From an uncultured archaeon (GTDB lineage Archaea > Iainarchaeota > Iainarchaeia > Iainarchaeales > CSSED10-239), in contig CAZQEL010000001.1 of NCBI GenBank assembly GCA_964591795.1, positions 30,001 to 62,000 on the forward strand: a DNA stretch of 32,000 bases, given 5' to 3'. Below the pieces are notes generated by a model. That model saw only the letters and a program-made list of their open reading frames with translations, made no database searches and was not told the origin of the DNA. The position numbers were made by a program, and so were the translations under genes. Below, in pieces: positions 10,646 to 31,455 of this stretch (within the stretch, counting starts at the first letter, position 1; every line of letters begins with the position of its first letter).

Positions 10646-10915
10646 TTATAATCTTCCTTTAAATTCTTTACCAACTTTGAATGAAACTGTTTTACTTGCA
10701 GAAATTTTCATAGCTTTTCCAGTTTGAGGATTTCTACCCATTCTAGCAGCTCTCTTCTTAACTTTGAAAGTACCAAAACCAACTAATTGTAATTTACCTT
10801 CTTTTTTAACAATTACTTTCATAGCTTCTAAAGTTGTATTAATAAACTCTTCTGCTTTTGCTTTTGAGAAATCTGTTTTTTTAACAACAGCTTCAACTAA
10901 TGTTTTTTTATTCAT
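10646..10915 (-). CDS. HU-family (bacterial-type histone-like) DNA-binding protein
   Basis: 89 aa. MNKKTLVEAV...LQLVGFGTFKVKKRAARMGRNPQTGKAMKISASKTVSFKVGK aligns along its full length with my memory of E. coli HU, including the GFGTF...R.GRNPQTG arm. Confidence 0.92.
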   Translation of the reverse strand: MNKKTLVEAVVKKTDFSKAKAEEFINTTLEAMKVIVKKEGKLQLVGFGTFKVKKRAARMGRNPQTGKAMKISASKTVSFKVGKEFKGRL

Positions 10916-11126: not shown

Positions 11127-11480
11127 TTATTTTTTTCCGCCTTTACGAGAAATTGTAGAGGTTCCCCAAAAGAAAACAGATACAAGACCAAAGCCTAAAA
11201 ATAAATATCCCATCATAATAGCACTAGTTAAAAATAAATATTTATAAACTAAAAAATAAGCTAAAATACCAGTTACAATAAAAGTAAGAATATTTTTTTC
11301 TCCAAAAGCTTGAGAGGCATTTTCATAAATAAAGAAAACAATTAAAGCCATAATAATATATTTTACCCAAGGAAAAATCACCATAAATCCAGGTACAATT
11401 AATATAGCTACAACTGAAACAATTAATATTTTTACAAGTAATGGAACTGCTCCAAAAACGCCACCTTTATTATTAAGCAT
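11127..11480 (-). CDS. small polytopic membrane protein (about 4 predicted TM helices), last gene of the giant-protein cluster
   Basis: 117 aa, almost entirely hydrophobic helices with a basic C-terminal tail (RKGGKK). The ATG lies 3 nt after the stop of the preceding gene, suggesting translational coupling. An AGGT motif lies upstream. No family recognised. Confidence 0.7.
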   Translation of the reverse strand: MLNNKGGVFGAVPLLVKILIVSVVAILIVPGFMVIFPWVKYIIMALIVFFIYENASQAFGEKNILTFIVTGILAYFLVYKYLFLTSAIMMGYLFLGFGLVSVFFWGTSTISRKGGKK

Positions 11481-11483
11481 AAA

Positions 11484-11855
11484 TTATCTACCTGGAGGTT
11501 TCCCACCCATTCTTTTAACTAAATGATTTCTAGCTGCATGTTCTGTTGCTCCTGGAGTACCATGAGTATCCATTTTTTTACCCATCATTTCTTCAGCTGA
11601 ACCACCAGCACTAATAAAGAAGAAATCAACAAATATTCCAGCTACACCCACTGACAATAAAATATATAATATATATCCAGTTTTAAAAATAGGCCAAAAT
11701 AAAAAGATCATAACAATAACACCAATACTAATCATTACTAATGCAAGTGTATTATGAGTAACTCTTCTTTTGATAAAAGCTATGATTGTAAGTATTAAAA
11801 ATAATTGTAAGATAAAATCAAAATCTTGAAAAAAATTTAAATATATATTTAACAT
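11484..11855 (-). CDS. small membrane protein (about 3 TM helices) with a polar basic C-terminal tail
   Basis: 123 aa. It has hydrophobic helices followed by the tail GGSAEEMMGKKMDTHGTPGATEHAARNHLVKRMGGKPPGR. An AGGA motif lies upstream of the ATG. It starts 24 nt downstream of the 2111-aa gene. No family recognised. Confidence 0.7.
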   Translation of the reverse strand: MLNIYLNFFQDFDFILQLFLILTIIAFIKRRVTHNTLALVMISIGVIVMIFLFWPIFKTGYILYILLSVGVAGIFVDFFFISAGGSAEEMMGKKMDTHGTPGATEHAARNHLVKRMGGKPPGR

Positions 11856-11879: not shown

Positions 11880-14800
11880 TTAAGTATTATTTATAACTGG
11901 ACAAATATAATCACTAGGAATATTAGAAATTATAATGTCAAGTTCATTTTGTGTAAAATTAACTTCACTATCAACCCATTTAATATATGTTCTTTGAGGT
12001 GATTTATGAATACATGCTTTTTCATTTTTTACAAATTCAAAAATTCCTTTAATTGTTTTTAAATTATTCAAATTATTTCCTAAATTATGATCCGAATTTT
12101 TAAACGTAATATCTTCAACATTACCAATTAAATTTGATTTAGAAAATATTTTTGTAAAATCACTATTAGATAACTGAGAAGTTTTAAATTTAAATTGACT
12201 TAAGTCTAAATCAGTAGGTATATATAACATAGTAGTTAAACTTATATTATTATCTGTAACTGTACTTGTGTCTAATATATATCTACCAATATCATCACTA
12301 GAATATAAATTATCAATAAATACAATATCATTACTAGTCCATTTTAAAAAGTTAGAACCAATTAATGGATCTAAAGAATTGTCACCACTATGTAATAAAT
12401 TATAAGATAACTTACTATTAAGTAAACATGCAGCATATGAATATAATGGAATTGGATATGATAAACTATATGTCATTTGAAGTTGTCCATCATTAAATTT
12501 TTTTAAATCTAATATATATCCTTCTGAATCAATAATATTATTTAAATTACCTAGACTATTATAATTATTTATTGCTAAAGTATTAATTGGGTTATTAACT
12601 AAAGAATAATTTAAATCTACAATTGAATCAGATCTTATTTGAATTATAGGGTCATAATTATTTGTTTGTATACCATATCCATCTCTAGTTCCATTTTGAT
12701 TTAATCTTCCGTCAAATGGCATATAATGAAAAGCACTAAGTTCTGATGAACTTAAGTTTTTTACAAATAATAATTGAATATCAATCTTAGTATCATCCAT
12801 AGAATTTTGATAATAATCATTATCATTACCATAAACATCAACCTTATATATTCCAGGCATAAATGTTTTTTGAGTACTATTATTATCAAAAGTAATTTTT
12901 AAGTCACCATCATTAACTGAACTTTCTGTAAATAAATTTGAATTATTAGGTTTAGAAAATTTTGAAAATTGACTAAAAGCATCATTATCTCTATAATCTA
13001 TAAAATCTTTTAAAAGATTGTCAGAAATTCCATCATTCATTAATTTAATATAAAATGGACCTTCAACACAATTTTGAATTTTATAAAATATAGATATTAG
13101 CATCTGTAAAGAATCACAAGCATATTTTTCATACATTTCAGAAACATTATTACCAATACATTTATTAGTCCAACCTCCTTCTTCATATTCTTCACCCCAA
13201 TTAAAAAACACTTTAGGCAAATACTCTAACCCAGTTTTACAAGAATCGGTTTGATCTTGACAATAACCTAAAATAAACATATCAGTGCCATCATTTTGAC
13301 CACCAACACCTATACAATAATCAAAATCAATGGTGCTCTGAGTTATTTCTGGGTCTAATTTAAAAATGGTATAATCAGCAAGAACATTCTTATTAAAGTC
13401 AGAATTAAGAATATCTAAAACTTTAAAGTTAAATAAAGTATTTTCAATTCCTGTTGTTTCATCTAAGGATAAATCACTAAAATTAGAATTATATGTTACA
13501 GAACGTGTTATATCTGTAGTTATTAAAGATAACTCTGAAGATAAATTATTAACTGATAAATTTTCATCAATAGGATTTAAGGATACTGGAGTTAAAAGTT
13601 TAACTTTATATAAATTTAAATTATTATTAAAACTATATATTTTAGATTGACTACATTCATCTTGAGAAATACAAAATATTTCTACTGAATTCCAAGTAAT
13701 ATGTGATATATTAACTATTGATTCACTATTATAAGCCTTAACATTAAATGTTTGTGTAAAATTTACATCATTACCATTAAGTAAAATATTAAATGTTAAA
13801 ACAATTGCTGAGTTGTTTGTAGGATAGTCACCAGTATATGCATCATTAAACTTAAAATTAATTGGAATTAACACTGATGACAAAATATTTTGATTATTTA
13901 AATTAATAGAATCATTAAATACACTATTATCAATAAACAAAGGTAAACTATCTACTATAATATTTTTTAAAACAGCATTAACATCTGAAGATAAATTATA
14001 ATCTATAACAATACTAGGGTTGATATCTTTTATAATTTCAATATCATAAACTTCATTTTCATCAGAATATCTAACACCTTTATTTGGATTAGGATAACTA
14101 GCACTATAATTTATAGAACCTAAATTTTGAACAACAATATTTGAGTTTACATCAAGTAACAAAGTAGTATCATCATTAAACTTTAAATGATTTGTATAAC
14201 TTTCATTAATATCAACACCAGTACTAATATCATCATTTAAAACTAAACTAGTCAAAACAAGAGTTTGAACTTGATTTATATCCTTAGGTAAATCATTAAC
14301 AGTAAAAAGATTAGATTTAATTTGATTTACATCAAATACACTAGATGCTCCTGTGAATGTAAGATCATTTAAATTTGCAACAACAGTTGATTGCTTTAAA
14401 ATATTATAATTTTCAAGATTAACATCTCCAAAAATAATTGAATCATTTAATCTATAAAAATATGTAGAAAGATTAATATTATTTTCTAAAATTGAATATC
14501 CAGATTCAATAGTTTTTGATCTTACAACAGTATTGTTTATAAAACCAGCTTCTGGAGTAAAAATAAAATAAAAATTAATTTTTTTAGACATATCTTCAAC
14601 AGGAAGATAAATATTTTGATCAGTTAACAATCCTTGTGCATCCGTATCACCTAAAGAGATTGCTTCTCCACCAGTTACTTGATATTTAATTAAAATATTT
14701 TCAATTGGTGCATTATAATTATCAACAACTTTAAATGAAACATTATTTTGTCCAATAAATATATCATTATTTAAATTACTAGTAATTTCAAACACAAAAT

Positions 14801-17800
14801 TAACATCTGAATAATATGAATATAATGAAGTATTAATTATAGGGAAATTGTTTAAAATATCTGTTGATAGGACAGGTTCTGAATATGCTGTATTTTCAAA
14901 AAAACCAGTTGGCTTAAATATTGTATAAGTATTAATGTTATAACCTCTGTTTGCATCTATTAAATTTATTGAATAATTATAATCATTAATAACTGTTTGA
15001 TAATAAACAATAGGATCCATATTACCATCAGGATCTCCTGAATCTAATAAATAACCATAGCTTGCATATTCTAAATTATTATTTGTATAACTTGAAGTTT
15101 GATCAATACTACCTTGTCTTAATAAATTTTTCAAATATAAATAATAAATATCATATTTATAATTTGTTTCAATAGATACTGAATAACCATCTACATATGG
15201 AGTTAGTACAGTACCATTAAAATCTTTAATTTTCTTTGAATATATATAATCTAAATTATTAAATGGAATTTGATATTTATTTGTTTTTGAATAGAAATAA
15301 CCATCAGGATAAATTGGAACTTCATTCCAAGAGATAGATTGAATTGGATCAAAATTATATATTTCACCATATTTTGTAGCCAAAGATCTATAACTTAGTT
15401 TGTAAAAATCAGTGGGTGCAACAGGAGCCTCTTTAAATTTAATATTTGCAGAAAATTCTAAAACATTTGGAGAAAGATCCATTACATTAACTTCAAACCA
15501 TTTATATTTATTTCCATTATAATCATAACCTTGATCAGTAGTATAATTTTGATTAAATAAAGTTATATTAAAATCAGGAATATGCTCTCCAGAAAATTTA
15601 TATCCTCTATCAATTTGAATTTCATCTGATAATATATCATCAGAAACAAAATAAATATAATCGTCATCTATAAATATTTCATTTCCTGCTCTTAAGTGTA
15701 AATATTTAATTTCAGAATCACTAAAGCATGAAGTGTATTTAAATTTAAGTCTATATTCATCATCAAGCCCATTATTATTATAATCAATATTGGTTACAAT
15801 TCTAGTTCCTGTTTTATTATATAAGCCAGTTAATTCAAGTTTAGAATCTGAACATGCAACTAAACTAGTTAAAGAAACTTCTTTAAAAATTTCTTGATCA
15901 GGTACAAGTGTTAAAACTTCTGTTTGATAAGTTGTATATCCTTGTGTACTAATAACAGCATAAACTCTATTTACTCCACCAATAAAATAATATTGAATAT
16001 TTGAATCAACATCAACAGACACATAATCAATTACTGAATTATGCTCAACATCATAGAAATTAATATCAAAATTTATATTTGGAGTTACTTTTAAATTTAA
16101 TATTTTTGGAATATCTTGTAAATTCACAAATAATGGTAAAAAAGCATTAACATCAAGCTCTTCAGTACTTGAAGTTCCTTCTCTATCAACAATACCATGT
16201 ACAGCATAAGCATAATAGTTCTTATGAGCCCTCTGTAGTTCAAAATTAACATCACCAAATTGATTAGTAAATTTAGAAACTGGGTTTGTAAGTACAAAAT
16301 TATTATCAACTTCCCTATAAAGATAAACTCTTGCGTTTGAAATATTTTGAATATTATCTTTTACATTAACACCAATTTTTCCAGAATTCAGTTCTGATGA
16401 AAATTCTAAAGGTATAATTATATTTCTATCTAAAGAAGTTACTAAAACTGGATCTGGTTGATTATAACCATTAATTTCAGTATTTATTATTCTAACTCTA
16501 TAATCATAAAAATTAATTACATTAAAAGAATAATAATTTGTATCTTCTGCTATGTATTCAGTAAATACATAACTTTCGTTTGTATCTTTTAATTTTGATT
16601 CAAGAGTAATGTCTCCAAAAACTGGTTCACTAGTATTTGCATCTTTTAAAGTCACAGAAATATAACCAGTAGTACCTAAAATACAAATTCCATCGCTATT
16701 TATATTTAAGAAAGGTTTTAAATGTTCATTATTACAATCAATAACCCCAGCTACACAAAAGTTAGAATACTTAGGTAAAGTACAATCAAAGTTAATTAAA
16801 TCATCTCTTGTAAATAAAACAAAAGAAGTATTAATAGTTTCTTCTTTAAAAACTGTTAAAGGTCCTTTTTTAGGATATGTTAAATATCCTTCTTTTGTAA
16901 CAGTTAAAAGATATTGTTTAGGATCAAGAGAAAATTCACCAAGTCCATAAATGTCAGTTTGTTTATTATCAAGAGGTAAAATAAAATTTGATTGTGAATA
17001 ATTATAAACAGTTACATCAGAACCTAAAAGAGCATCCCCAGAGATATTTTTCACACTAAAACCTAATTTACCAATATCTGAAGTGATTCTAGTTAAAACA
17101 ACTTTATTGTTAGAACCAATTACTTTATTTGTAATTGATGAAAATTTATTTGAAGTTACTGACACTCTTAAACGTCCACATGCAGCAGGAGTTTTAACTG
17201 TAATTCTACCATTAGCTATAAGTGTATTTTTTGGAGTAGGTATTTTTTCATTATTTGTACATGAAAATACAATATTTAATGTTGTATTTAAAATTAAAAT
17301 ATCATTATTTTCAACAAACATAATTTCTCTTTCTTCTTCTTCACCAACTGGTAAAAGAGGGGAATCAAGATCAATTAAAAGAGTTACAGTTTGTCTCAAA
17401 CTATTTTTACTAAGTTTAAATGAATGATTTAAAGTAGTATAATGTTCTTTAGATACAATTAAATTAACATTTTGTTTTTTAGATTTTAAATCTTTAAATA
17501 TTGCTTCTCCAAACACATTTGTAGTTAAAAATGAAATGTTTTCATCATTAATTTGGAAAGTTACTAATGCTCCATTTAAAGGAACACCAGCAGGATCATA
17601 AACATCAACACCTATAGTCCAAGATTTTGAAAAAGATAAAGTACCTGATAAAATTAAATATAATAATAATGCTAAAATTAATAAAAATAAAATAAAACTA
17701 GGAAATACTTTATCAATACGATCTGTTAGTTTATTAACTGGTATAACTTTACTAATTCCATCAATCATTTTATAATAATTATCCTCAAAAAAGAAATAAC

Positions 17801-18215
17801 CTTTTTTAAAAAAATTACCTGTCTTTTTAAAAAAACCAACTTTATTAACATTACTTAAATTCTTTTTAATTTCAGTTTTTGGTTTTTCTTCTTTAACATT
17901 TAGTTTATTTGAAGAACTAGTTTTATTAACAAGTTCTTTTTTTAAATTATTTTTAGCAGAATTTGTACTATTAATTGATTTTGACAATTCACTTAAAACA
18001 TACTCTTTTGTATTAGCTAAAGATGCAACTTTTTTTAATGGAAGTTTATTATTTTTAATAATTTTTAAAACAAGATAACCTACGTTATCATTATACCCTT
18101 GTAACTTTATTGTTTCTTTAATTTCTTTTTCAGTAAAATTCATTGTTTTGTCTGATAGTAGACTATAAAGCTTTTCTGCTTCGATTTTATCTTGAGATTT
18201 TTTAAACAATGACAT
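11880..18215 (-). CDS. giant surface protein (2111 aa): cytoplasmic Lys-rich N-terminus, one TM anchor, beta-sandwich repeat stalk, conserved Cys-containing C-terminal module
   Basis: Uninterrupted 6.3-kb ORF. The TM segment FPSFILFLLILALLLYLILSGTL is at about aa 171-192. There are several carboxypeptidase-regulatory/transthyretin-like units, for example GVDVYDPAGVPLNGALVTFQ...NVFGEAIFKDL and VKNISGDALLGSDVTVYN...DIYGLGEFSL...TKEGY. N-x-S/T sequons are abundant. The C-terminal ~480 aa is homologous to the C-termini of the 2505-aa and 973-aa proteins. Confidence 0.9.
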   Translation of the reverse strand: MSLFKKSQDKIEAEKLYSLLSDKTMNFTEKEIKETIKLQGYNDNVGYLVLKIIKNNKLPLKKVASLANTKEYVLSELSKSINSTNSAKNNLKKELVNKTSSSNKLNVKEEKPKTEIKKNLSNVNKVGFFKKTGNFFKKGYFFFEDNYYKMIDGISKVIPVNKLTDRIDKVFPSFILFLLILALLLYLILSGTLSFSKSWTIGVDVYDPAGVPLNGALVTFQINDENISFLTTNVFGEAIFKDLKSKKQNVNLIVSKEHYTTLNHSFKLSKNSLRQTVTLLIDLDSPLLPVGEEEEREIMFVENNDILILNTTLNIVFSCTNNEKIPTPKNTLIANGRITVKTPAACGRLRVSVTSNKFSSITNKVIGSNNKVVLTRITSDIGKLGFSVKNISGDALLGSDVTVYNYSQSNFILPLDNKQTDIYGLGEFSLDPKQYLLTVTKEGYLTYPKKGPLTVFKEETINTSFVLFTRDDLINFDCTLPKYSNFCVAGVIDCNNEHLKPFLNINSDGICILGTTGYISVTLKDANTSEPVFGDITLESKLKDTNESYVFTEYIAEDTNYYSFNVINFYDYRVRIINTEINGYNQPDPVLVTSLDRNIIIPLEFSSELNSGKIGVNVKDNIQNISNARVYLYREVDNNFVLTNPVSKFTNQFGDVNFELQRAHKNYYAYAVHGIVDREGTSSTEELDVNAFLPLFVNLQDIPKILNLKVTPNINFDINFYDVEHNSVIDYVSVDVDSNIQYYFIGGVNRVYAVISTQGYTTYQTEVLTLVPDQEIFKEVSLTSLVACSDSKLELTGLYNKTGTRIVTNIDYNNNGLDDEYRLKFKYTSCFSDSEIKYLHLRAGNEIFIDDDYIYFVSDDILSDEIQIDRGYKFSGEHIPDFNITLFNQNYTTDQGYDYNGNKYKWFEVNVMDLSPNVLEFSANIKFKEAPVAPTDFYKLSYRSLATKYGEIYNFDPIQSISWNEVPIYPDGYFYSKTNKYQIPFNNLDYIYSKKIKDFNGTVLTPYVDGYSVSIETNYKYDIYYLYLKNLLRQGSIDQTSSYTNNNLEYASYGYLLDSGDPDGNMDPIVYYQTVINDYNYSINLIDANRGYNINTYTIFKPTGFFENTAYSEPVLSTDILNNFPIINTSLYSYYSDVNFVFEITSNLNNDIFIGQNNVSFKVVDNYNAPIENILIKYQVTGGEAISLGDTDAQGLLTDQNIYLPVEDMSKKINFYFIFTPEAGFINNTVVRSKTIESGYSILENNINLSTYFYRLNDSIIFGDVNLENYNILKQSTVVANLNDLTFTGASSVFDVNQIKSNLFTVNDLPKDINQVQTLVLTSLVLNDDISTGVDINESYTNHLKFNDDTTLLLDVNSNIVVQNLGSINYSASYPNPNKGVRYSDENEVYDIEIIKDINPSIVIDYNLSSDVNAVLKNIIVDSLPLFIDNSVFNDSINLNNQNILSSVLIPINFKFNDAYTGDYPTNNSAIVLTFNILLNGNDVNFTQTFNVKAYNSESIVNISHITWNSVEIFCISQDECSQSKIYSFNNNLNLYKVKLLTPVSLNPIDENLSVNNLSSELSLITTDITRSVTYNSNFSDLSLDETTGIENTLFNFKVLDILNSDFNKNVLADYTIFKLDPEITQSTIDFDYCIGVGGQNDGTDMFILGYCQDQTDSCKTGLEYLPKVFFNWGEEYEEGGWTNKCIGNNVSEMYEKYACDSLQMLISIFYKIQNCVEGPFYIKLMNDGISDNLLKDFIDYRDNDAFSQFSKFSKPNNSNLFTESSVNDGDLKITFDNNSTQKTFMPGIYKVDVYGNDNDYYQNSMDDTKIDIQLLFVKNLSSSELSAFHYMPFDGRLNQNGTRDGYGIQTNNYDPIIQIRSDSIVDLNYSLVNNPINTLAINNYNSLGNLNNIIDSEGYILDLKKFNDGQLQMTYSLSYPIPLYSYAACLLNSKLSYNLLHSGDNSLDPLIGSNFLKWTSNDIVFIDNLYSSDDIGRYILDTSTVTDNNISLTTMLYIPTDLDLSQFKFKTSQLSNSDFTKIFSKSNLIGNVEDITFKNSDHNLGNNLNNLKTIKGIFEFVKNEKACIHKSPQRTYIKWVDSEVNFTQNELDIIISNIPSDYICPVINNT

Positions 18216-21002: not shown

Positions 21003-24000
21003 TTAACTACATTTTAAAGCATCACGTTCAGCTATAAATTCTTCAGGATAAATTTCAGCAGGGTTATAGAAAAACTCAGAAGAAGAACCATCTGTTGAAT
21101 TTAGAACACAAATCTGATTTTCTGCAATTAAATCAAACACACTCTTTATAGAATTAATACTAGAAACTGCAGTTTGATATCCTAATGAAACATTTGGACT
21201 AAAGTCAGTTCCATTTAATGAAAATTTAACACCAACATCTTGATCTGACTTATTCTCAAGAGTATATGTTTCTTTTTCAGGAGCATAGAAAATAGTTCTT
21301 AAATAAATTTCACCTGTTTTAATAACTTGTGGCCAATCTAAAATATAGGATGATTGAGGACCATTAAGTGATGCATATCTATCATAGTAAGCCATGTTAA
21401 ATATACTATTTCCTGAAAAGTCACAGCCAGAACCAACACCAGTCCATCTTAAAAGAGAAGATGAGTCTGTAAGTGTATTATCTGACTTATCTTTCAACCT
21501 ATAAAACACATTTAATGGATTAGTATTATTTTTTGTAACTTCCATTAAAATTGGCACAGCTTCACTTTTGCTTAAAATTAAATCAATATTATTTGCATTA
21601 TATTTAACACTTAAAATATTACCTCTAGTTTCAAGAGAAGAATTAATTCTATAAAAATCACTTGAATTAGTAATATTTATATTTCTTAATGCATTTGAAC
21701 CATTATCTAAATCTGATTTTACATTATCTCCATCAATATTAATTATATCTCCAGTATAACTTACACCATATCCTTGTCTATTATAACCTGAATTTGTTTG
21801 ACCAACAAATCCATTGAATGGTATTCTATAAAATACACTATCTGTTTCTGGTGATTGTAAAAATCTAAATGTTACATAAGTATTTAAATCTACTTGATCA
21901 GCAACATCTGTAAATCTCCAACTACTATCATTAAATAAAAAATCAATTTTAATTTTATATTTACCAGGACTTGTTAGATTCACATTATTTTTTTCGCTTG
22001 AATATTGTTTTATAAAATATAAATTATTCTTAAAAAGTTCAGATAAATAACCATTACTAAATACTTCTGGTGAAGACATAAAAGTATAAATTCCTGTTCC
22101 AGAACCATCTTCTTTAGATGCTAAACCACCATATGCAACATCAAAATCATTTATAAAATTTTGATTATAGTTATCTGTTATTAAATACGCGTCAAACTCT
22201 AAAAGTTTTTTAAAATCTATAATATCCTGTTGACTCCAACCATTTCCATTAACATTATCAGGATACATATTTTTATTAAACCATAAATCAAGATAACTAA
22301 TTCCATTATAATTAGCTGTAGTTGAAGGAACCTTACAATCTGTTACTGGTGCTTCATCATATATATCTAAAGACACTATTGATTCAAATTTATTATTTTG
22401 CATATCAACAGATTCACCAGTAAGATTAATATTTAAAGATAAATCATCACCAATTATTGGTGAATTTGAACTTTCAGTAAATTCTAAAACTATTTCTGAA
22501 AAAGTATCATCTTCAGAAATATTTAAAGTTACAGGTATTAAATTTAAAGCTTCAGTAAAACCAACTAAATCTCCATCAGCATTTCTATAATAAGCAGCTG
22601 TAGGATATTCATTATTTAATTTAGCAACTATATTTCCAATTTTTATACTTCCAGATCTATTGTCTAAATAAATTTTAGAAATAAATTTATTTTCTGCAGT
22701 ACTTAATTCAACAGAATCAATACCAACTTTAGATACTGAAACATTATTATCAGCATTAATAGGTTCTGCATTTTTAATGTAATAAAAACCATTTAAACTT
22801 TGAATTACTTGTTCTTGAGGACTTAAAGGATATAATACTGTTCTTTGTGATATGAATTCTTCAGCTTTATTTATTCTGTTTAAAACAACTTGAGTTAATT
22901 GAGTTGAATCACAATATTTTTCAGAACATCTATTAATATCTTGAACTGACCAATCCCAATCTAATAATACATTTGGAACTGCACCAGAACCAGTTTTACC
23001 AGTTTTACCAGTATCTGTAACACAATCTTGAACTACCAAATTATAATTTTGTGTTTCTTCTGGTTTAGTAATAAAAAATCCAAATCTATAGTTTCCAATC
23101 TTTTCAGAATTTGCAAATGCAGGATCTTGTATTTCAACTGAATCTTCAAGTGTTGGATTAAATTCATAGTTTTTAAAATAATATTTCTTTGAATCATTAT
23201 TAATGTGACTATATATGTTATCAGTAAAACTAAATTGTAATGGTTTTATTCCAGATTGCTCTGGCCATAATGTTTCATTAACTTTACAAGTATAAAACAT
23301 TTCAGTTTCAAGTTGTATTCTATTTCTAGTTGGTTTTGCACCATAACATTTAATTGATTGAGATAAAACTCCATCTTCAATTGTTGGATTAAATGAATTA
23401 TCACAATTTCTATTTTTTATTATTTGAGAATAATAATCTTCAATACTTGAATTAGGATTATTACATAAAACATAATCTGTTAAAGATAAATCAGCGTCTT
23501 TTGTAAGTCTATCTTTAATTTTATTATAAATTTTATCTGAATCTTGTGTTCTTGTAATTAAATCATTATAAGTATAATATCTAGCACCAGTAATATCAAA
23601 AATATTTAAATAAGAAGATTCATCGGATACATCATCTACAGTGATTATTTTTAAAAATTCACCATTAGAAAGTGTATACTTTTGAGGAACATCTAAATAT
23701 TTATTATTTAAAACTGGATATGCAAATTCATTTTTCCAAGAAGTTGCTGCCCAAGAAACTAAAACAATCACAGCTAAAGTAATCCAACCATAAACAGGAA
23801 TAGCAGCTAAAACTGCAGCAAATCCAACAGATCCAGCTGCAGTAGCACTAGCAACTGCAATTTCAAGCGCTGCAGCAGTAGCAATACTTAAACCAACCGC
23901 AGTAACAGTTGCTGCAGCTAAAACAGTTATACCAATTGCAGCAGCAACAGGCATAGCACCTTCATCAGTAGTACCCATAAATTCTAAATTTTCTAAGGAT

Positions 24001-27000
24001 TTATAATTCATTTTTTGGAAAGCATCATCTTGTTTATTAAAAGTTGATGACAAATAATCAGAAAAGGTAGATGTAACAGTAACTCCATTTTGAGCAATTT
24101 GAGCTTTATATTGTTCAACATCCTGAACTGTAGGAATAGAATTAACATAATCCCAAGGAGTCTGTTCTAAATTATTATTATATAATCTTACACTTTCAGA
24201 AACTTTAGTAGTATCTGAAATTTCAATAAAAGGATCCTCCATCCATAAACCACTAGAATCTTTTGCATTTATTTTTAATAAAGCATAAGCTGAAGTAACT
24301 TCACGTCCAATATTATTAACAACAGATATTTTATTGTTTAAAACATAAGCACCAGGAGCAATAGTTGAATCTTTTCTTTTAATTGAAACAGTTTTTTCTG
24401 AGTCTAAAAGACTAAAATTTAAAATACCATTTTCTTCATCAGTATTATCAATAGATAAATCTCTACAGGAATAATCATTTCCTTCACAAAGATCCATTTT
24501 TAATGTTGCTTTACCAAAACATTCGTTTTTAATAGTTAGATCTTTAGCTACAGTATCCTCAAGAACAAAAAGACCACCAGAATTAATTTTTTCTCCACCA
24601 TCATAATAGGATAAACATTGTGTTAAATCCATAATTGATATATTTGCTTTTAATAAAATATCATTAGAACCTTTATTTACAAAAGTTAAACCCTCTTCTG
24701 TTTCTACTTGAGCATTTAAATAAATATCAGTTTTTACTTCTGCAAATTTAGCACCATTTGTGTTAAATGCAATTTCAACAGTATATTCTTCTTCAGGTCT
24801 CATTTCATTAATTAAAATTCTATAATAATTTTCTGATAATTGTATTTGATTAGAAGCACCTGAACCAATTAATTTTAAGAAATAAATACCATATCTATCT
24901 CCATTAGATTTAATTTTTGCTTGAACATTCTTAATTGTTATAGGTAAATTTCCTTCTTTAGAGATACAAGTGTTTTTTATTTTTAAAGTTGTAGATTGGG
25001 TTGTTGTTGAAACAACTGTATTCCATTCACCAGCACTTTGAGTAACAACTAAACAATCATCTTCTAAAACACCGTTTCCAACAGATAATTTTACATTAAC
25101 AGGAATATTAAATAAATATTTTTGATTATTTAATAAATAAGTGGCAGTTAAAGCACCTAAAATATTTTCACTTACAGAATGTGATTGAGCACTTTCAGAA
25201 GGTGCAAATTTAATTAAAATTTCTTTAGATTCGTTTGCAGGTATTACAAAACCATCAGGTGTACTAATTATTTGATTATTAAGATAATTAACAGTTTGTA
25301 AAAGATTTAATAAATAGGATTTATTAAAAGAAACATCCTGTTCATTAAATTGATTTAAAATTAATGGATATGCAGTTTTATTTTTAAGTTCTAAAGTATA
25401 TATCTCCCCATCCATATTTGTCTTATGAATAAATACTTCTAATGGTGAATTTGAATTAATTATTTCAGAATTATTAAAAATATCAATAATATCTCTAGTA
25501 ATTGAAAATTCAACTGGATCTGCAAAATATTTAGATTTAATAGATTCAATTATAAAAGTTTCTCCTGGTCTTAAAGATGGAAGACTAATTGTAGCTTTTC
25601 CTTCTGCATCAGTTGTTCTACCAGTTGAAACTATAGTTGTTCCAGTTATTGTTTTTTGTAAAATATTAATATTTGCACTCTCAACAGCATTTCCAGTAGT
25701 ATCTTTAACAATTACGGTTAATGTAAATGGAACACCAGGTACAATATTTTTAGGTTCATAATCAACTATCATTTTATCAAGATCTGATACAACAAAGTTA
25801 ATTGGTAAAGTATAAATTACTGATTGTTCAGAAACAATTCTAGTTTGAAGTTTTGATTGTCCTAAAATTAATGGGAATAATTTTAAATTAAAATTTATAT
25901 TTGAAAACGGATTTAAATTATCCTTTAAAAGTTCATTTTCATAAAATGGAAGTTTAAAATTAGTTTCTCCAGTTGCAGTTTCGCCCACTGATGAAAATTC
26001 ACCTGTAACATCATATGATTTAATACCAACCATAGCTGTAGGATTACCTTCAGAATTAACATTAACTGCTGAAAGTCTAGCATCAGGATAATTATTAGGT
26101 GATGAGTTTGTTATTTGATATTCTAAAGTATAATCAGAGTTAACAAGCATTGGAATATTTTTATTTCCTCCAATATCATATCTTAATCCTTCTGAAACAT
26201 CAACATATTGTCCTGAGAAACAAAATGTAGTATTACAAAGACTTGTTGCTTCTACAAAATATTGTAATTGAGTATAATTTTGAGTCATGTAGTTTATAGA
26301 TGTAATTGATGATGTATAAAAGAAAGATACTTTATCATTAGTTTGTGCATTTCTAATTCTTACAGGAATTGTAATTTCATGAACTGATGCTGGAAAATCA
26401 TTTACTTGTATATTTACAAGTTTTGATTCTAAATAATTACTTGAATTTGAAAAAGGTTCACTCTCATAATAAACAGCTACACCTAAAGAGTTATTTTCAG
26501 ACATTATAAAAATAATATCATCACTAACATTTATTTCACTTCCAGCTCTAAGTGTAAAATTAAAATTTGTACTTGAAGATGGCATTATAATTTTATATTT
26601 TAAATAAAATACTTGATTATTTTTTAAAGATTCAACTTCTTGATAGTCAGTATTATATAAACCTAAATATTCAGTAACAACATCTTCAGTTGTAAGCGCT
26701 CTTTCTAAAATAATATTTTTAATAATAGTTTTACTTTTATAAATTCTAAACATTTCAGTAAAATAAGGTAAATAACCATCAGTTTCTATTTTTATGAAAA
26801 CTTTTTTATCTGCTTTTATTTGATTTTGCAAAGTACCATTAGCTGAAGCCATTGCAGTTCCTAAAACAGCACCTGTTTCTGAATAAAAAGTTACTGTTGA
26901 ATTACCAACTATTTCTTCTAATTTATTTTTTACATTTAAATTAATTGTTCCTTTTCCAATAATAACAGGAAGAGTAATATTTGTATCTGTTGGTGGTAAA

Positions 27001-28511
27001 TTATGATATTCAGAAGAAATTTCTTCAATATAAAGATTCTTTGTCTTAACTGTAAAGTTTAAATCTGGAATATTTTTAAAAACTGCATTTCCATTTTCAT
27101 CAGAAATACTAAAATCAAATCTAGGATCAATATATTGCCCATCAGCATCATATAACCAAGATTTAATACCAATAATTGGTTTATCATCTTCGTCTTTTAT
27201 TGAAACAATAATATTTGAAACATTACTTATAGTTATTTTTTCTAAATTAAAAGTATATATGTTTAATGAATTAGATACTGACATTAAATTTCCAGGAATG
27301 TACCCTTCTGCTGCTACTTTAAGTGAATAATTTTTATTAGTATCTACATTAAAAATAAAACCTTCATGAAGTTGTCTATCTTCAACATTTTGATTTCCAT
27401 CTAAAAGTAAAGTAACAATAGGATTTGTAGAAGCATCTAAAACAATACCTGTATCTCTATCTTTTACAAAAACAGTTATTTCATTTAAAATAATTTCTTG
27501 ATTTGTATCTGGATCAATAACAGGACTAATTCCATCTCCAGTATCAATCATATTAATAGTAATTTCAGACATTGCATTTTTTATAACAATTACATCTTCT
27601 TGTGATGCTAAATATCTATTTTGAACATCTGTAGCTTTAACAACATAATCACCAATAGGAATAGAATCAAAAGATCCAACCCCAAAGTTTGATTGAATTG
27701 TTTTTATTGAACTAACAGGATCATCAACTGAGAATATTTTTAAAGTAATTGAGTCTTCAATATAATACTCTCCACTCATTAAAGAAACATAAGCAGATCC
27801 AACTTCTAAAGAAATTTCTTTTGGACTTAATCTAATGATTGAATCAGACATTTTTATTGGAATACTTGTAGCATTATATTTATCACTTACTACATTTGCA
27901 TAAAGAGTTTTACAGCTTGAAGGAACTTCTAAAGACACAGAACCATCAACTGTTTCTATTGATGAAGGTGTAATTACATCTCCATTATCACAAATAATAG
28001 TTACACTTAAAGCATCTTTAATTTTTTGTTCAGTTAAAGCATCTTGAAAATATACAATTTTTGGAAAATTAACTGGAATATTTAAAAGACCGATTATAAA
28101 ATTAAAAGTTTGTCTATCAAAAATTAGTTCTTGTTCATAATAGTCATAACCTTCTTGTTCAACAATAAACAAATAAGAATTATTTTTATTTAAGGTGATT
28201 TTAAAAGAACCAGCAACATTTGTAGTATAATTATTTGTAGTTCCGTCTGATATGTTTCTAAGTTTAAAATCAAAATTACTTAAAATATTATTTTCATTAT
28301 CAGCAAGCCTTAAAGTTACATCAATGTTATTTGATTTTAATGAACCTAAACTTGAACCAAAAATTAAATAAAGTACTATTAAAATAATTAAAATGAATAA
28401 AAAAAAAGAAGTTAAAGGATACTTTTTATCTAAAGGACCTGTTATTTTCTTAATTGGAATTCTATTATCTATCCCTGTAAGAATATTTTGCCATGTCTCT
28501 TTAAAACTCAT
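21003..28511 (-). CDS. giant surface protein (about 2502 aa): N-terminal TM anchor, beta-sandwich/Ig-like stalk, internal Ala/Gly-rich hydrophobic island, conserved C-terminal module
   Basis: Uninterrupted 7.5-kb ORF. I place the start at the ATG at 28509-28511 (MSFKETW...). The track's GTG (28518-28520) lies inside a GGGTGAT Shine-Dalgarno at 28516-28522. The TM anchor is LTSFFLFILIILIVLYLIF. Repeated carboxypeptidase-regulatory/Ig-like units include IKDEDDKPIIGIKSWLYDADG...DENGNAVFKNIP and VKDTTGNAVESANINILQ...TDAEGKATISLP. A hydrophobic island lies at track aa 1521-1595. The C-terminal ~900 aa is homologous to the 973-aa protein. Confidence 0.9.
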   Translation of the reverse strand: MSFKETWQNILTGIDNRIPIKKITGPLDKKYPLTSFFLFILIILIVLYLIFGSSLGSLKSNNIDVTLRLADNENNILSNFDFKLRNISDGTTNNYTTNVAGSFKITLNKNNSYLFIVEQEGYDYYEQELIFDRQTFNFIIGLLNIPVNFPKIVYFQDALTEQKIKDALSVTIICDNGDVITPSSIETVDGSVSLEVPSSCKTLYANVVSDKYNATSIPIKMSDSIIRLSPKEISLEVGSAYVSLMSGEYYIEDSITLKIFSVDDPVSSIKTIQSNFGVGSFDSIPIGDYVVKATDVQNRYLASQEDVIVIKNAMSEITINMIDTGDGISPVIDPDTNQEIILNEITVFVKDRDTGIVLDASTNPIVTLLLDGNQNVEDRQLHEGFIFNVDTNKNYSLKVAAEGYIPGNLMSVSNSLNIYTFNLEKITISNVSNIIVSIKDEDDKPIIGIKSWLYDADGQYIDPRFDFSISDENGNAVFKNIPDLNFTVKTKNLYIEEISSEYHNLPPTDTNITLPVIIGKGTINLNVKNKLEEIVGNSTVTFYSETGAVLGTAMASANGTLQNQIKADKKVFIKIETDGYLPYFTEMFRIYKSKTIIKNIILERALTTEDVVTEYLGLYNTDYQEVESLKNNQVFYLKYKIIMPSSSTNFNFTLRAGSEINVSDDIIFIMSENNSLGVAVYYESEPFSNSSNYLESKLVNIQVNDFPASVHEITIPVRIRNAQTNDKVSFFYTSSITSINYMTQNYTQLQYFVEATSLCNTTFCFSGQYVDVSEGLRYDIGGNKNIPMLVNSDYTLEYQITNSSPNNYPDARLSAVNVNSEGNPTAMVGIKSYDVTGEFSSVGETATGETNFKLPFYENELLKDNLNPFSNINFNLKLFPLILGQSKLQTRIVSEQSVIYTLPINFVVSDLDKMIVDYEPKNIVPGVPFTLTVIVKDTTGNAVESANINILQKTITGTTIVSTGRTTDAEGKATISLPSLRPGETFIIESIKSKYFADPVEFSITRDIIDIFNNSEIINSNSPLEVFIHKTNMDGEIYTLELKNKTAYPLILNQFNEQDVSFNKSYLLNLLQTVNYLNNQIISTPDGFVIPANESKEILIKFAPSESAQSHSVSENILGALTATYLLNNQKYLFNIPVNVKLSVGNGVLEDDCLVVTQSAGEWNTVVSTTTQSTTLKIKNTCISKEGNLPITIKNVQAKIKSNGDRYGIYFLKLIGSGASNQIQLSENYYRILINEMRPEEEYTVEIAFNTNGAKFAEVKTDIYLNAQVETEEGLTFVNKGSNDILLKANISIMDLTQCLSYYDGGEKINSGGLFVLEDTVAKDLTIKNECFGKATLKMDLCEGNDYSCRDLSIDNTDEENGILNFSLLDSEKTVSIKRKDSTIAPGAYVLNNKISVVNNIGREVTSAYALLKINAKDSSGLWMEDPFIEISDTTKVSESVRLYNNNLEQTPWDYVNSIPTVQDVEQYKAQIAQNGVTVTSTFSDYLSSTFNKQDDAFQKMNYKSLENLEFMGTTDEGAMPVAAAIGITVLAAATVTAVGLSIATAAALEIAVASATAAGSVGFAAVLAAIPVYGWITLAVIVLVSWAATSWKNEFAYPVLNNKYLDVPQKYTLSNGEFLKIITVDDVSDESSYLNIFDITGARYYTYNDLITRTQDSDKIYNKIKDRLTKDADLSLTDYVLCNNPNSSIEDYYSQIIKNRNCDNSFNPTIEDGVLSQSIKCYGAKPTRNRIQLETEMFYTCKVNETLWPEQSGIKPLQFSFTDNIYSHINNDSKKYYFKNYEFNPTLEDSVEIQDPAFANSEKIGNYRFGFFITKPEETQNYNLVVQDCVTDTGKTGKTGSGAVPNVLLDWDWSVQDINRCSEKYCDSTQLTQVVLNRINKAEEFISQRTVLYPLSPQEQVIQSLNGFYYIKNAEPINADNNVSVSKVGIDSVELSTAENKFISKIYLDNRSGSIKIGNIVAKLNNEYPTAAYYRNADGDLVGFTEALNLIPVTLNISEDDTFSEIVLEFTESSNSPIIGDDLSLNINLTGESVDMQNNKFESIVSLDIYDEAPVTDCKVPSTTANYNGISYLDLWFNKNMYPDNVNGNGWSQQDIIDFKKLLEFDAYLITDNYNQNFINDFDVAYGGLASKEDGSGTGIYTFMSSPEVFSNGYLSELFKNNLYFIKQYSSEKNNVNLTSPGKYKIKIDFLFNDSSWRFTDVADQVDLNTYVTFRFLQSPETDSVFYRIPFNGFVGQTNSGYNRQGYGVSYTGDIINIDGDNVKSDLDNGSNALRNINITNSSDFYRINSSLETRGNILSVKYNANNIDLILSKSEAVPILMEVTKNNTNPLNVFYRLKDKSDNTLTDSSSLLRWTGVGSGCDFSGNSIFNMAYYDRYASLNGPQSSYILDWPQVIKTGEIYLRTIFYAPEKETYTLENKSDQDVGVKFSLNGTDFSPNVSLGYQTAVSSINSIKSVFDLIAENQICVLNSTDGSSSEFFYNPAEIYPEEFIAERDALKCS

Positions 28512-28515
28512 AAAA

Positions 28516-28522
28516 ATCACCC
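28516..28522 (-). promoter_or_regulatory. Shine-Dalgarno site (GGGTGAT) of the 2505-aa gene
   Basis: The transcribed strand reads GGGTGAT-TTTT-ATG. This matches the archaeal or bacterial anti-SD complement GGAGGTGATC. Confidence 0.6.
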
Positions 28523-28533
28523 TGTGTTAATAA

Positions 28534-31455
28534 TTAATTTATTATACATCCATCGTTGTTTTCAATCCATATAGTTTGTGATTCACTTGATAGATCTCCA
28601 CCGAATAATGGTTCTGATACTGCAATAGGATTATAATATATTTTTAATGAATTACCAGTGTAATCAATACATGCTTTCTTTTCATTAACAAGATTAAAAA
28701 TCTCACTTACAAACTTAATATCATTTTCTAAAATATTATTAAGTATAACAGAGTTTGATCCACTTGTATTATCTTTTGTAAAAAACAATGCTGAATCATC
28801 AGCTGAATCTTGATATAATACACTTTTACCATTACCTGTTTTAAAATTACTTGGAGTGTATAAAACTGTTCTTAAATAAACATTTCCATGTCTTGTAATA
28901 TTCTTTGCTTCCCATTCAACACCATAAGACACTGCTTGACTTGGAGTAATTGGTGCAAGTCTTGATGAAAGTGCATGTACATCTGGTCTTTCAAGATAAG
29001 CTTCTTGTACTGATATTCCTGAAAAGTCAAGACAATTACCAATACCTGTCCATGGAACTAAAGTTCCTGAAGTAAGTGCTGGTTCTCCACCTTGATTTTG
29101 TGGTCCACCAATATCAAGTTTATAGAAACTATAAGCATCATTTGCTTGATTAGATACTTTTAAAGCAACTGGAGTTGCTCTTGATGGTATAAAATAAAGT
29201 TCTGGATTTGTTTTATTTTCAGATAAATTAATACTAAGTAACATACCTCTTGTTGAACCGTTATTTAAGAAAGAAAATTCATTTGGAAGACGTCCATATT
29301 CCTTTACACTTACAGTATTAATTGTATTTGATTGTGTAAAAGGTTCTGTTCTTAAATATTGACCAGTTGCAGTTTCAACAATTGTTACAATATCTCCAGT
29401 AAAATCAATACCATAACCTTGTCTTGCGTTATCTGAATCAACACCTACAAGTCCATCAAATGGCATATAATAAAGAGGAGAATCTCTTTCTGGTGAAATT
29501 TCTCTAGATAAAACTATATCTACATTTCCTGTAATATTGCCAGCATCATCAAACAATCTCCATTGATCGTCAAATGTTACATCTAATAAAACATTATATC
29601 TTCCAGGACCTTGTAAAATAAGTCTTCCTGATTCTGAATCCATTGTTGATTTAAAATTAAAATTATTAGATATAAAATATTTATAATATTTTTCAATATA
29701 ATCTGTTGGAGCTGCAGTTATTGTAAATCTATAATATCTATCAAAATCTGATTTAAAATCATCAGAATATCCATCTTTCATTAAATAAGATCTAAACTCA
29801 ACTAATGAAGTATCAATCTTTGTGTTCTTTGAATATAAATTTAAATTCCTTGAAATCTTTGGTAAATTACAAACTTCTGAATTTGGAGTAAATATGTTTT
29901 CTAAAATATTATCCAATTCTGAATCTACAATACTATATGGGGTATCCAATATTAAAACTGCAGAAACTTTTAAACTTGTAGTATCATCTAAAATTATTCC
30001 AACATCAAATGATTCATTTCCAACATAAACTTCATTATTAAAATCATTTATATTTAAAGTAATTAATTTTGATTCAACTTGAACATTATTTTTATAAACT
30101 GTTAAACTTAAATGACCATATGGAGAAGGAGATATATTTTTATCAGCATTATTAAAACCACCTTCTATTCTATAATCAACAGCAATATATCTATCATCAT
30201 AACTTGAATTTAAAATAGTTAGACCTAAGTTATCTGTTGCAGAAACTAAATTTTGAGTAACACCTGGTGTTGGACAAGTGAAATCTCCTTTATTTGTTTG
30301 AACAAAATCATCTATTTCTTTTAATTTATTTAAAAGTTCAATTGAGAACTGTGTTGAATCACAAAAGATTGATTGTTTATCAGCTTCTCCTGTTAAATCA
30401 GCATCACACCAATTAAGAGTATTTACATACTTATCTGAAATTAATTGTACCTCTTGATTATATCCAAAATCCCAATTAAATGCAATCTTTGGTAATATTT
30501 CTGAACCTGTTTGTCCTAAAAGCATTCCACTTTCAGTAACACAATTAACTTGATCAAGATTAGTATTATCAAGCACATCTCTTGTATAAGAATTAAATAT
30601 TAATTTAAATGGTTCAGTTACAATTTCATCTTTTCTATTATCATTTATTATTTTTAAAAAATTATCATTTCCACTTAAAACTCTACTAATTTTTATTAAT
30701 GGAGTACCTGTTGAAAAAGGTGAAGCTAAGAAAGTTAACCAATCTCCACTTAAAAATTTACCATTAAATATATCGTTTGGAGTTAAACTATAACTAATAT
30801 CATTTATATATGTTGATTTAGGATATTTAACAACAAAATTTCTATATTCGTATTCGTTTTCAATAGTTTTTGCAGGATCTTCAAATAATATTTCTCTTTT
30901 TTGAATATCTAAAACATCATTATTTGAATCTAAAACTTGTGTTAATTTTGTTTTGTCAGCAAGTCTAAATGTTGGTGAATTGCTACCATTATCTATTTCT
31001 ATTAAATTTTTAACTTTTATAAACTGTGCATCAAGAACATTTTTATCTGTTAATAAAATATTTTCATATGGTAAATAATCGGGTATATCCTTTGCATCCA
31101 ATTTATTAACATATACAAAATCTTCAACATGTTCAATTGTATAATCTTTAATGTCATTTGAAATATTTACTTTATCTCTATCAAGCGCAAAATTAATTTC
31201 AACTTTTGATAATGAACTAAAAGTTTTAAATGCTGAAAAAGCACCTACTAAAATTCCATGAACAACAGGACTTAATCCAAATACTTTGGTTAAAAGACCA
31301 CCTCCAGAACTAAATAGTGAATCTACTAATCCCTTTCCAACAGCTTCTGTAGCATCATCATTGCCGGGTGCAGCTACAGGCACGCTAATAAAAGAAAGCA
31401 TTAGAGTTATCATTAATATTATTCCTAGGAATTTAGTTTTATTTTCATATTTCAT
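28534..31455 (-). CDS. secreted 973-aa protein: signal peptide, Gly-rich hydrophobic segment, then a full copy of the module forming the C-terminal third of the 2505-aa protein
   Basis: The signal peptide is MKYENKTKFLGIILMITLMLSFISVPVAA. The hydrophobic Gly-rich segment AVGKGLVDSLFSSGGGLLTKVFGLSPVVHGILVGAFSAFKTF spans aa 38-79. Blocks shared with the 2505-aa C-terminus include CVTESG..G.TGS..P...FNWDF, FCDSTQ, YLMKDGYSDDFKSDFD, PGRYNV, YYMPFDG...RQGYGI.FTGDI, WTGIGNCLDFSG, YLRTVLYTP and YYNP. An AGGTG Shine-Dalgarno lies 8 nt upstream of the ATG. Confidence 0.9.
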   Translation of the reverse strand: MKYENKTKFLGIILMITLMLSFISVPVAAPGNDDATEAVGKGLVDSLFSSGGGLLTKVFGLSPVVHGILVGAFSAFKTFSSLSKVEINFALDRDKVNISNDIKDYTIEHVEDFVYVNKLDAKDIPDYLPYENILLTDKNVLDAQFIKVKNLIEIDNGSNSPTFRLADKTKLTQVLDSNNDVLDIQKREILFEDPAKTIENEYEYRNFVVKYPKSTYINDISYSLTPNDIFNGKFLSGDWLTFLASPFSTGTPLIKISRVLSGNDNFLKIINDNRKDEIVTEPFKLIFNSYTRDVLDNTNLDQVNCVTESGMLLGQTGSEILPKIAFNWDFGYNQEVQLISDKYVNTLNWCDADLTGEADKQSIFCDSTQFSIELLNKLKEIDDFVQTNKGDFTCPTPGVTQNLVSATDNLGLTILNSSYDDRYIAVDYRIEGGFNNADKNISPSPYGHLSLTVYKNNVQVESKLITLNINDFNNEVYVGNESFDVGIILDDTTSLKVSAVLILDTPYSIVDSELDNILENIFTPNSEVCNLPKISRNLNLYSKNTKIDTSLVEFRSYLMKDGYSDDFKSDFDRYYRFTITAAPTDYIEKYYKYFISNNFNFKSTMDSESGRLILQGPGRYNVLLDVTFDDQWRLFDDAGNITGNVDIVLSREISPERDSPLYYMPFDGLVGVDSDNARQGYGIDFTGDIVTIVETATGQYLRTEPFTQSNTINTVSVKEYGRLPNEFSFLNNGSTRGMLLSINLSENKTNPELYFIPSRATPVALKVSNQANDAYSFYKLDIGGPQNQGGEPALTSGTLVPWTGIGNCLDFSGISVQEAYLERPDVHALSSRLAPITPSQAVSYGVEWEAKNITRHGNVYLRTVLYTPSNFKTGNGKSVLYQDSADDSALFFTKDNTSGSNSVILNNILENDIKFVSEIFNLVNEKKACIDYTGNSLKIYYNPIAVSEPLFGGDLSSESQTIWIENNDGCIIN

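Follow-up and report, generated by a model that had tools for sequence, protein, structure and literature searches.

A small-residue hydrophobic island in the middle of a giant Iainarchaeota surface protein: a candidate helical hairpin and second membrane anchor

Class I viral fusion peptides and internal fusion loops, for example those of paramyxovirus F, HIV gp41 and filovirus GP2, are apolar segments rich in Ala, Gly and Thr and are marginally hydrophobic. Small residues prevail also in glycine-zipper hairpins (Gly-zipper_Omp PF13488, Gly-zipper_YMGG PF13441 and "Glycine zipper 2TM" PF05433), which are uncharged Gly/Ala-rich two-helix units of about 40-50 amino acids (aa) with both ends on one membrane side. 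Known representatives are small lipoproteins of the bacterial outer membrane; SlyB and YfgH have been described as glycine-zipper transmembrane (TM) lipoproteins (bioRxiv 10.64898/2025.12.22.696046, 10.64898/2026.06.08.730324). Membrane-inserting toxins of the colicin/diphtheria T-domain type and the glycine-zipper LXG toxins of type VII secretion systems (T7SS) carry a small-residue apolar helical hairpin within a larger soluble protein. In archaea of the phylum Iainarchaeota (Diapherotrites), giant envelope proteins account for about 5% of a sub-megabase genome (PMC5905446). Here we describe such a protein, p2505, encoded by a 2505-aa open reading frame (ORF) in a stretch of 32 kb from an uncultured Iainarchaeota archaeon (contig CAZQEL010000001.1), the whole of which is called the window below, and in particular the hydrophobic island found at residues 1521-1595 of this protein. 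The same operon encodes two related proteins, p973 and p2111, which share with p2505 a C-terminal module of about 700 aa bearing Cys residues.

It is considered moderately probable that the island is a small-residue (Gly/Ala "zipper" type) alpha-helical hairpin which sits in the archaeon's own membrane and acts there as a second anchor. With the same moderate confidence we infer its topology, its insertion into the own membrane, the Sec-type stop-transfer and restart by which it would get there, and its anchoring role. A hairpin in the own membrane had been named in the initial annotation of the window as the alternative to an exposed, fusion-peptide-like element, and it fits the anatomy of the island across the protein family. 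Gly/Ala-zipper hairpins as such are known elements. To judge from the sources searched, what is new is the setting of this one: the middle of an archaeal surface protein of about 2500 aa, with a P-x-x-G-W or C-P-x-C turn and often flanking Cys residues, in one of three paralogue classes encoded by a phylum-wide operon.

The initial annotation had reported that the composition of the island departs from that of its surroundings and that the DNA is GC-enriched at this place, and both properties are confirmed: translation of 21003-28520 (minus strand) gives the 2505-aa ORF, of which residues 1521-1595, at 23736-23960, have the quoted sequence. Ala makes up 32% of the island in comparison to 3.8% of the remainder of p2505, Asn, Lys and Asp are absent, and there is a single Glu. 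The 225 nucleotides have a GC content of 0.44, compared with a mean of 0.249 over the window (z = 4.4), and this is the highest value among all 225-nt stretches of the window. This surplus is confined to codon positions 1 and 2 (0.60 and 0.63 against about 0.37 and 0.33), while GC at the third codon position (GC3) is unchanged, 0.09 against 0.07 elsewhere. As no tRNA gene (ARAGORN) and no Rfam family lies under the island, the GC spike is a by-product of the Ala, Gly, Val and Thr codons; an RNA gene or a foreign insert beneath it was rejected on this null result and the unchanged GC3. Gly and Ala together reach 40% of the island, whereas the operon's other TM and signal segments all have 0-16% and are rich in Ile, Leu and Phe. 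In a genome of about 25% GC a Gly+Ala share of 40% argues for selection for small residues.

The island is a recurrent feature of the family. A word-index search for homologues matched solely a near-identical contig-edge fragment, P0001 (991 aa, starting at M1515), which could be taken for an internal start; the contig, 3.3 kb long, opens with this gene at its third base, and the gene is hence truncated. An exhaustive profile search gave 609 homologues, 329 of them at E <= 1e-30. Among the matches listed, 101 homologues exceed 1800 aa, and 47 of these have an uncharged hydrophobic segment of 40 aa or more; of the giant members (approximately 2300-2600 aa), about half show an uncharged island rich in Gly and Ala. 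Nine sequences of the C-terminal module, used as query against GTDB genomes, yielded 73 loci, almost all in metagenome-assembled genomes (MAGs) of Diapherotrites/Iainarchaeota; the complete genome of Candidatus Forterrea multitransposorum and AR10 are among them. Three giant-protein loci (L054, L065, L068) are situated in MAGs labelled Chloroflexi or Thaumarchaeota, probably owing to binning contamination.

Under a looser criterion, the database homologues and the ORFs of the 73 loci were pooled into 120 distinct islands with a median length of 53 aa (range 36-105 aa), 18% Gly and 18% Ala. All of them are located about 650-1000 aa, mostly 800-900 aa, from the C-terminus. A typical island starts with a Gly/Ala-rich helix, passes through a turn of the form P-x-x-G-W or C-P-x-C into a more hydrophobic helix rich in Ile, Val and Leu, and is followed by an acidic stretch, often (D/E)-D-P-C and then L-P-D-Y-V-I-N-L. 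There are on average 0.4 Lys/Arg and 1.2 Asp/Glu per island, and the flanks of 15 aa are net acidic (-0.8 upstream, -2.3 downstream). Conserved Cys residues stand on both flanks in 44 of the 120 islands (37%), where about 4% would be expected by chance; the motifs concerned are V.A..C.W.EA within 25 aa upstream and DPC just downstream. Within the islands Cys is absent in 83 cases and present twice in 31. In the Iainarchaeum-type clade (L014-L074; P0023-P0150, for example P0057, P0125, L018 and L026) the turn is often C-P-(P/V/A)-C, and the island is bracketed by V.A..C.W.EA before and D-P-C....T..L-P-D-Y-V-I-N-L after. Judged by sequence, the pattern of flanking Cys suggests a hairpin with adjacent ends, perhaps closed at its base by a disulfide staple on the oxidising side of the membrane.

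The topology of the island can be approached from its two flanks. The initial annotation had placed an N-terminal anchor far ahead of the island, which is correct (residues 36-58, about 1465 aa before it), and had considered the region downstream as extracytoplasmic, which is supported indirectly. Both flanks are taken as extracytoplasmic because the C-terminal module stands behind the signal peptide of p973, is contiguous with the ectodomain in p2111, and is kept in orthologues with and without the island. On this view the number of membrane crossings made by the island would have to be even or zero. With a single span from outside to inside, an acidic flank together with a disulfide-type module would end up in the cytoplasm, and this in some orthologues only. 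The acidic flanks and the Cys residues on both sides of 44 of the 120 islands may be read as further indicators that both flanks lie on the same side. The richness in N-x-S/T sequons, initially cited for an outside location, was discarded as such evidence, being not enriched over what composition predicts (z = 0.9). The homology of the C-terminal part of p2505 to the 973-aa protein holds (BLASTP of residues 1825-2490 against p973 297-946, E = 6e-38; hhalign 98.7%), yet it can be detected only from about residues 1807-1825 and not right after the island as had been implied.

A TM hairpin is generally recognised by two apolar helices, each of about 18 aa or more, with a short Pro/Gly turn connecting them; the window island presents residues 1523-1545 and 1546-1572, the turn I-P-V-Y-G-W, and residues 1576-1595. 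Three helical segments under the constraint of an even number of crossings imply two that span the membrane and one that is interfacial. The first helix of p2505 (TM1) would start to export the Ig-like ectodomain of 1465 aa; transfer would be stopped by the first part of the island, and after a tight P-x-x-G-W turn helix B would restart export, now of the C-terminal module of about 900 aa. In such an arrangement two segments, residues 36-58 and 1521-1595, would pin p2505 to the membrane of its own cell; the ectodomain between them would form a giant loop, and the C-terminal module would be held at the membrane surface, where it could meet the same module of p973 and p2111. The small residues, kept against the AT bias, would let both helices pack tightly together and possibly also against TM1 or the operon's small polytopic proteins.

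Conservation of the island in homologues, the check proposed in the initial annotation, gave a divided answer. The position of the island is kept in the family; its sequence is not, and the element is absent in the orthologues of loci L009 and L010, which keep both protein halves and have no hydrophobic hairpin, as well as in p2111. Eleven close orthologues within L002-L013 (2426-2560 aa), compared with the window protein, show an identity of 56% in the N-terminal anchor region (residues 1-60), 42-43% in the ectodomains and 16% in the island, which is thus the least conserved part of p2505; helix A has 8%, the middle segment 17% and helix B 24%. Island length among orthologues varies from about 40 to more than 100 aa, mostly through insertions and deletions in the middle segment (1546-1572). 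The well-kept pieces in L002-L013 are limited to the (P/G)-P-x-G-W turn, the next helix and an aromatic/acidic tail. Low sequence conservation with kept character is what is expected for membrane segments.

Several observations weigh against a hairpin in the own membrane. The three segments are marginal on a crude summed scale (free energy, dG, from -0.2 to +2.2) in comparison to -4 to -6 for TM1. When a summed dG at or below 1.5 is taken as the cut-off for a hydrophobic 19-mer, 57 of the 120 islands have no passing 19-mer and just 8 have two. In about half of the islands a single 19-mer, usually that of the final helix, is clearly hydrophobic, and few islands have two; this pattern of one strong and one weak helix agrees with cooperative hairpin insertion, known for marginal helices, and is compatible with it rather than a proof. 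The presumed cytoplasmic turn carries no positive charge. In the AlphaFold2 (AF2) model the helices of the island (1526-1539, 1550-1561, 1565-1572 and 1576-1605) have a predicted local distance difference test score (pLDDT) of 33-58, the first of them below 50, so the hairpin geometry in the model is not informative. The "island-less" giant paralogues of the Iainarchaeum-type clade keep a single short Gly/aromatic hydrophobic segment, for example IMGAYTLGGFFIGGIY, ahead of D-P-C; such a segment cannot make up a complete hairpin, a hint that its role is interfacial. The clade of the window protein itself has no flanking Cys. Finally, the AxxxA/GxxxG-type packing put forward initially is not borne out: small residues at spacing four ((G/A/S)-x-x-x-(G/A/S)) form 16 pairs in the window island and 15.3 +/- 2.3 in shuffled sequences.

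The nearest described counterparts are glycine-zipper hairpins, which the island resembles in being uncharged, Gly/Ala-rich and, as we infer, in having both ends on the same membrane side. One homologue island, P0088, scores above the Pfam gathering thresholds (PF13488, 31.1 bits against 25; PF13441, 29.4 against 28.9); P0078 (28.1 against 28.9) and P0066 (25.9) come next. The window island itself has no glycine-zipper match in Pfam even at E <= 10, and this must be added to the points against a zipper hairpin. It is Ala-rich and not Gly-rich, with 75 aa it is longer, and it has three helical segments; many members of the family also add the C-P-x-C turn and flanking Cys residues. In contrast to the small bacterial lipoproteins, it lies between huge ectodomains. 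The giant "membrane-anchored" proteins of Candidatus Forterrea multitransposorum (Probst and Banfield 2018) belong to the same family and have the same gene order; a term search of that paper gave a one-sentence mention of the giants and none of the hairpin, the shared module or the paralogue classes.

One of the other explanations is insertion in trans, which is unlikely. It supposes that the hairpin is shielded or loosely embedded and enters on contact the membrane of a neighbour or host, which it could tether, perforate or fuse, by analogy with internal fusion loops and with the glycine-zipper hairpins of pore-forming toxins. The marginal hydrophobicity of the island beside TM1 would suit such a role, as would its Gly/Ala-rich composition, the weak toxin-like matches of homologue islands in Pfam (sub-threshold similarity to microcin V (MccV), Bacteriocin_IIc, P22 gp7, Diphtheria_T and RTX), and the Cys residues flanking 37% of islands, since disulfide-closed internal fusion loops have flanking Cys too. 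A glycine-zipper T7SS toxin is described as damaging membranes (PMC12955049), fusion or cytoplasmic bridges between DPANN archaea and host membranes have been proposed with their molecular basis unknown (PMC11329633), and PMC5905446 proposes a role of the giant proteins in cell-cell interaction. On the other side, authors quoted in PMC5905446 have considered Diapherotrites free-living. No part of the protein is less conserved or more variable in length than the island, which is dispensable in L009, L010 and p2111; downstream of it there are neither heptad repeats nor a helical-bundle machinery, and Foldseek against PDB and BFVD gave no match to the fold of a fusogen or pore-former. Helix B is strongly hydrophobic in many homologues (dG sums of -2 to -4), and the Sec translocon would be expected to integrate such a helix into the membrane of the producing cell. 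Unlike the membrane-inserting toxins, p2505 is anchored at its N-terminus in the classical way, and its operon showed no dedicated secretion system. Neither in sequence nor in fold was a significant similarity to these toxins found, and AF2 places the island relative to the folded module without confidence. A more far-reaching version, quite improbable, draws on the flanking Cys pair of many relatives, which possibly forms a disulfide, and on their C-P-x-C turn: the hairpin would be a stored insertion device that on cell contact leaves or extends from the envelope into a partner membrane, and p973, p2505 and p2111 would be the first candidate machinery for DPANN-host bridging or fusion.

There is also only a small chance that the island works as an internal signal of polyprotein style, in which a stop-transfer segment is followed by an internal signal peptide and helix B is succeeded by a signal peptidase site, for which A-T-S|W-K is the candidate. 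The cut would release a p973-like protein of 910 aa from an N-terminal fragment anchored at both ends. The separately encoded p973 indeed has the same module behind a signal peptide of its own, and the small residues after helix B (SWAATSW-KNEF) are kept in P0003 and L002; the small -3/-1 pattern is not kept in L003-L013 (PSFFSDY, PIFISDY, DTFENDY) or in the clade with DPC. An alignment of three sequences with MAFFT paired the island with the N-terminus of p973, in agreement with the "corresponding segment" that had been assigned to p973 initially, but neither a 51-sequence alignment nor the profile-profile comparison by hhalign pairs the island with the p973 signal peptide, so that the two segments are positionally analogous at best. 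By ORF sizes no split orthologue was noticed in the 73 loci, fragments at locus edges being left unresolved. The one apparent split gene, P0027 in L075 (1448 aa plus 974 aa starting at the island), has its junction in a run of Ns (L075 5860-5880, NPIE01004308.1); the split is an artefact of a scaffold gap and P0027 is a fragment.

Of similarly low probability is a non-membrane element, either a low-complexity Ala/Gly/Thr linker or a buried oligomerisation helix bundle with no lipid contact. The high variability of length (from about 40 to more than 100 aa) and sequence, the low-complexity Ala/Thr/Ser runs of some versions (for example L013 and P0068), the loss of the element in some orthologues and the low AF2 confidence speak for it. 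However, charge is nearly excluded over 36-105 residues, the last helix is rich in Ile, Val and Leu with Trp or Tyr at its ends, some islands exceed the thresholds of Pfam glycine-zipper membrane families, and a segment of this kind leaving the Sec channel should partition into lipid.

The likeness to class I viral fusion peptides, which had drawn attention to the island in the first place, is not supported, and every testable hallmark failed. The two have in common an apolar Ala/Gly/Thr composition, marginal hydrophobicity and, in part of the island family, flanking Cys residues. Class I fusion peptides have about 15-25 aa, lie at or near the N-terminus of the fusion subunit that cleavage at a basic site creates, and precede a heptad-repeat coiled coil (HR1), a second repeat (HR2) and a C-terminal membrane anchor. 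The window island has 75 aa and the family 36-105 aa, which makes the window element 3-4 times longer; it is also the least rather than the most conserved part of its protein. No basic cleavage site is visible upstream of the island, where the sequence ...NLEFMGTTDEG is acidic and has no Lys/Arg cluster. Neither heptad repeats nor a C-terminal anchor follow it: AF2 shows beta-rich domains, the longest helix downstream of helix B (1576-1605) has 20 residues, and no hydrophobic segment is present from residue 1596 to the C-terminus of p2505. When PDB and BFVD were searched by Foldseek with the AF2 model (mean pLDDT 78.8), whole-query TM-scores (TMq) stayed at or below 0.09, and no fusion glycoprotein or other fusogen fold (class I, II, III or fusexin/HAP2) emerged. 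The idea that two genes fused recently and left the island as a remnant signal peptide can be dismissed, as the position of the island is kept across hundreds of distant homologues and hhalign detects similarity to p973 only from about residue 1807. The three-sequence MAFFT alignment had set M1504 (MNYKSLENLEF) against the start of p973; this Met is Ile or Ala in other orthologues.

If the ordinary reading, a hairpin in the own membrane, is true, a second membrane anchor can be annotated in p2505 and the fusion-peptide idea can be dropped. The island is an entry point to the envelope of Iainarchaeota: the positionally conserved hairpin of one paralogue class, the shared module of about 700 aa and the operon order, conserved from Forterrea to Iainarchaeum, give a concrete architecture for what is likely the cell-surface or cell-contact apparatus of the phylum, and the topology, cleavage and lipid activity of an element of 40-80 aa bear on how DPANN cells engage other membranes.

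The features of p2505 and of its operon are collected in the table.

Table 1. Position and main properties of the island, of the other parts of p2505 and of related operon genes (window coordinates)
Feature	Position	Strand	Description
p2505 gene, giant membrane protein	21003..28520	(-)	listed start GTG, ATG at codon 4
TM1, N-terminal signal-anchor helix	28347..28415	(-)	residues 36-58; Kyte-Doolittle maximum 3.05; summed biological-scale dG -4 to -6
First ectodomain	23961..28346	(-)	residues 59-1520; Ig-like and prealbumin-like domains; no hydrophobic segment within
Hydrophobic island	23736..23960	(-)	residues 1521-1595, 75 aa, 32% Ala, one charged residue, E1553
Island segment 1, "helix A"	23886..23954	(-)	residues 1523-1545, MPVAAAIGITVLAAATVTAVGLSIA; marginally hydrophobic; dG sum +0.6 to +0.8
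Island segment 2	23805..23885	(-)	residues 1546-1572; Ala-rich, includes E1553; dG sum +1.7 to +2.2
Turn I-P-V-Y-G-W and "helix B"	23736..23804	(-)	residues 1573-1595; dG sum about 0 to -0.2
Conserved C-terminal module	21006..23102	(-)	residues about 1807-2505; beta-rich, invariant Cys columns; common to p973 and p2111
p973, short paralogue	28534..31455	(-)	signal peptide/anchor 9-29; weakly hydrophobic Gly-rich helix ~54-80; then C-terminal module
p2111, giant paralogue	11880..18215	(-)	same N-anchor motif and same C-terminal module; no internal hydrophobic island
p117 and p123, small polytopic membrane proteins at operon end	11127..11855	(-)	assigned by hydropathy

The tail ahead of TM1 is Lys-rich and well conserved and, from this composition, presumably cytoplasmic. 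Together with the anchor, the juxtamembrane motif ..GI...IP..K.T...DK..P is the best-conserved part of both giants: p2505 3-62 aligns with p2111 140-197, and the alignment of conserved tail and anchor extends as p2505 3-290 with p2111 140-432. Pfam recognises CarboxypepD_reg, SpaA and Big_1 (PF13620, PF17802, PF02369) in the first ectodomain of p2505. The turn with helix B has Trp or Tyr at both ends and is the best-conserved portion of the island. The C-terminal module is modelled by AF2 as beta-rich domains with pLDDT mostly above 90; no relative of it was found in Pfam, in PDB (no hits in a sequence-profile search; Foldseek) or in BFVD (Foldseek).

The operon consists of eight genes on the minus strand (window 11127-32000) in the order upstream ORF, p973, p2505, p124, p762, p2111, p123, p117, and the upstream ORF runs past the window end. 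The same gene order is found in Forterrea CP045477 (L003; 964, 2466, 120, 809, 2147 and 123 aa) and in L004; more distant Iainarchaeum loci have tandem giant genes followed by small hydrophobic ORFs, and such ORFs trail the giant genes in most related loci. In the window p117 and p123 may be the membrane partners of the giants. In p2111 the continuous ectodomain is joined to the C-terminal module with no hydrophobic segment in between, and residues 1-196 (17628-18215, minus strand) comprise an additional Lys-rich N-terminal extension of about 170 aa ahead of the anchor, presumably cytoplasmic.

The AF2 helices of p973 (6-23, 35-50 and 63-80) are of low confidence, and for docking of helix 63-80 on the module the model is uninformative (helix pLDDT < 52). 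p973-like proteins share a putative helix motif G..P..HG...GA.SGF.TY, which to our impression is loosely similar to the start of helix B. Two further GC-rich 225-nt stretches of the window belong to the p973 gene: the second highest (28885-29109, minus strand) covers a Gly/Pro/Ala-containing conserved part of the module, and the fifth (31182-31406, minus strand) the N-terminal signal and the Gly-rich helix region. The p762 protein (18239-20527, minus strand) has a signal peptide and then glycine-rich repeats of the type G-N-G-G-x-G-G, with no match in Pfam or NCBIfam; ORFs of similar size (809 and 816 aa) occupy the same position in Forterrea (L003) and L004.

Outside the operon, two tandem serpin genes are present on the minus strand (7925-9190 and 9221-10492; Pfam E = 1e-108 and 1e-113), the latter with an N-terminal hydrophobic segment. 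A bacterial-type HU/IHF-like protein (10646-10915, minus strand; about 81 bits to the HU-alpha model, below the equivalog cut-off) coexists in the same genome with an alanyl-tRNA synthetase of archaeal type (equivalog TIGR03683, 827 bits against a cut-off of 745). The tRNA-His(GTG) gene (7473-7545) is located directly upstream of the gene of its synthetase and overlaps the listed GTG start of the histidyl-tRNA synthetase ORF (6086-7531, minus strand), which places the real start of hisS further in.

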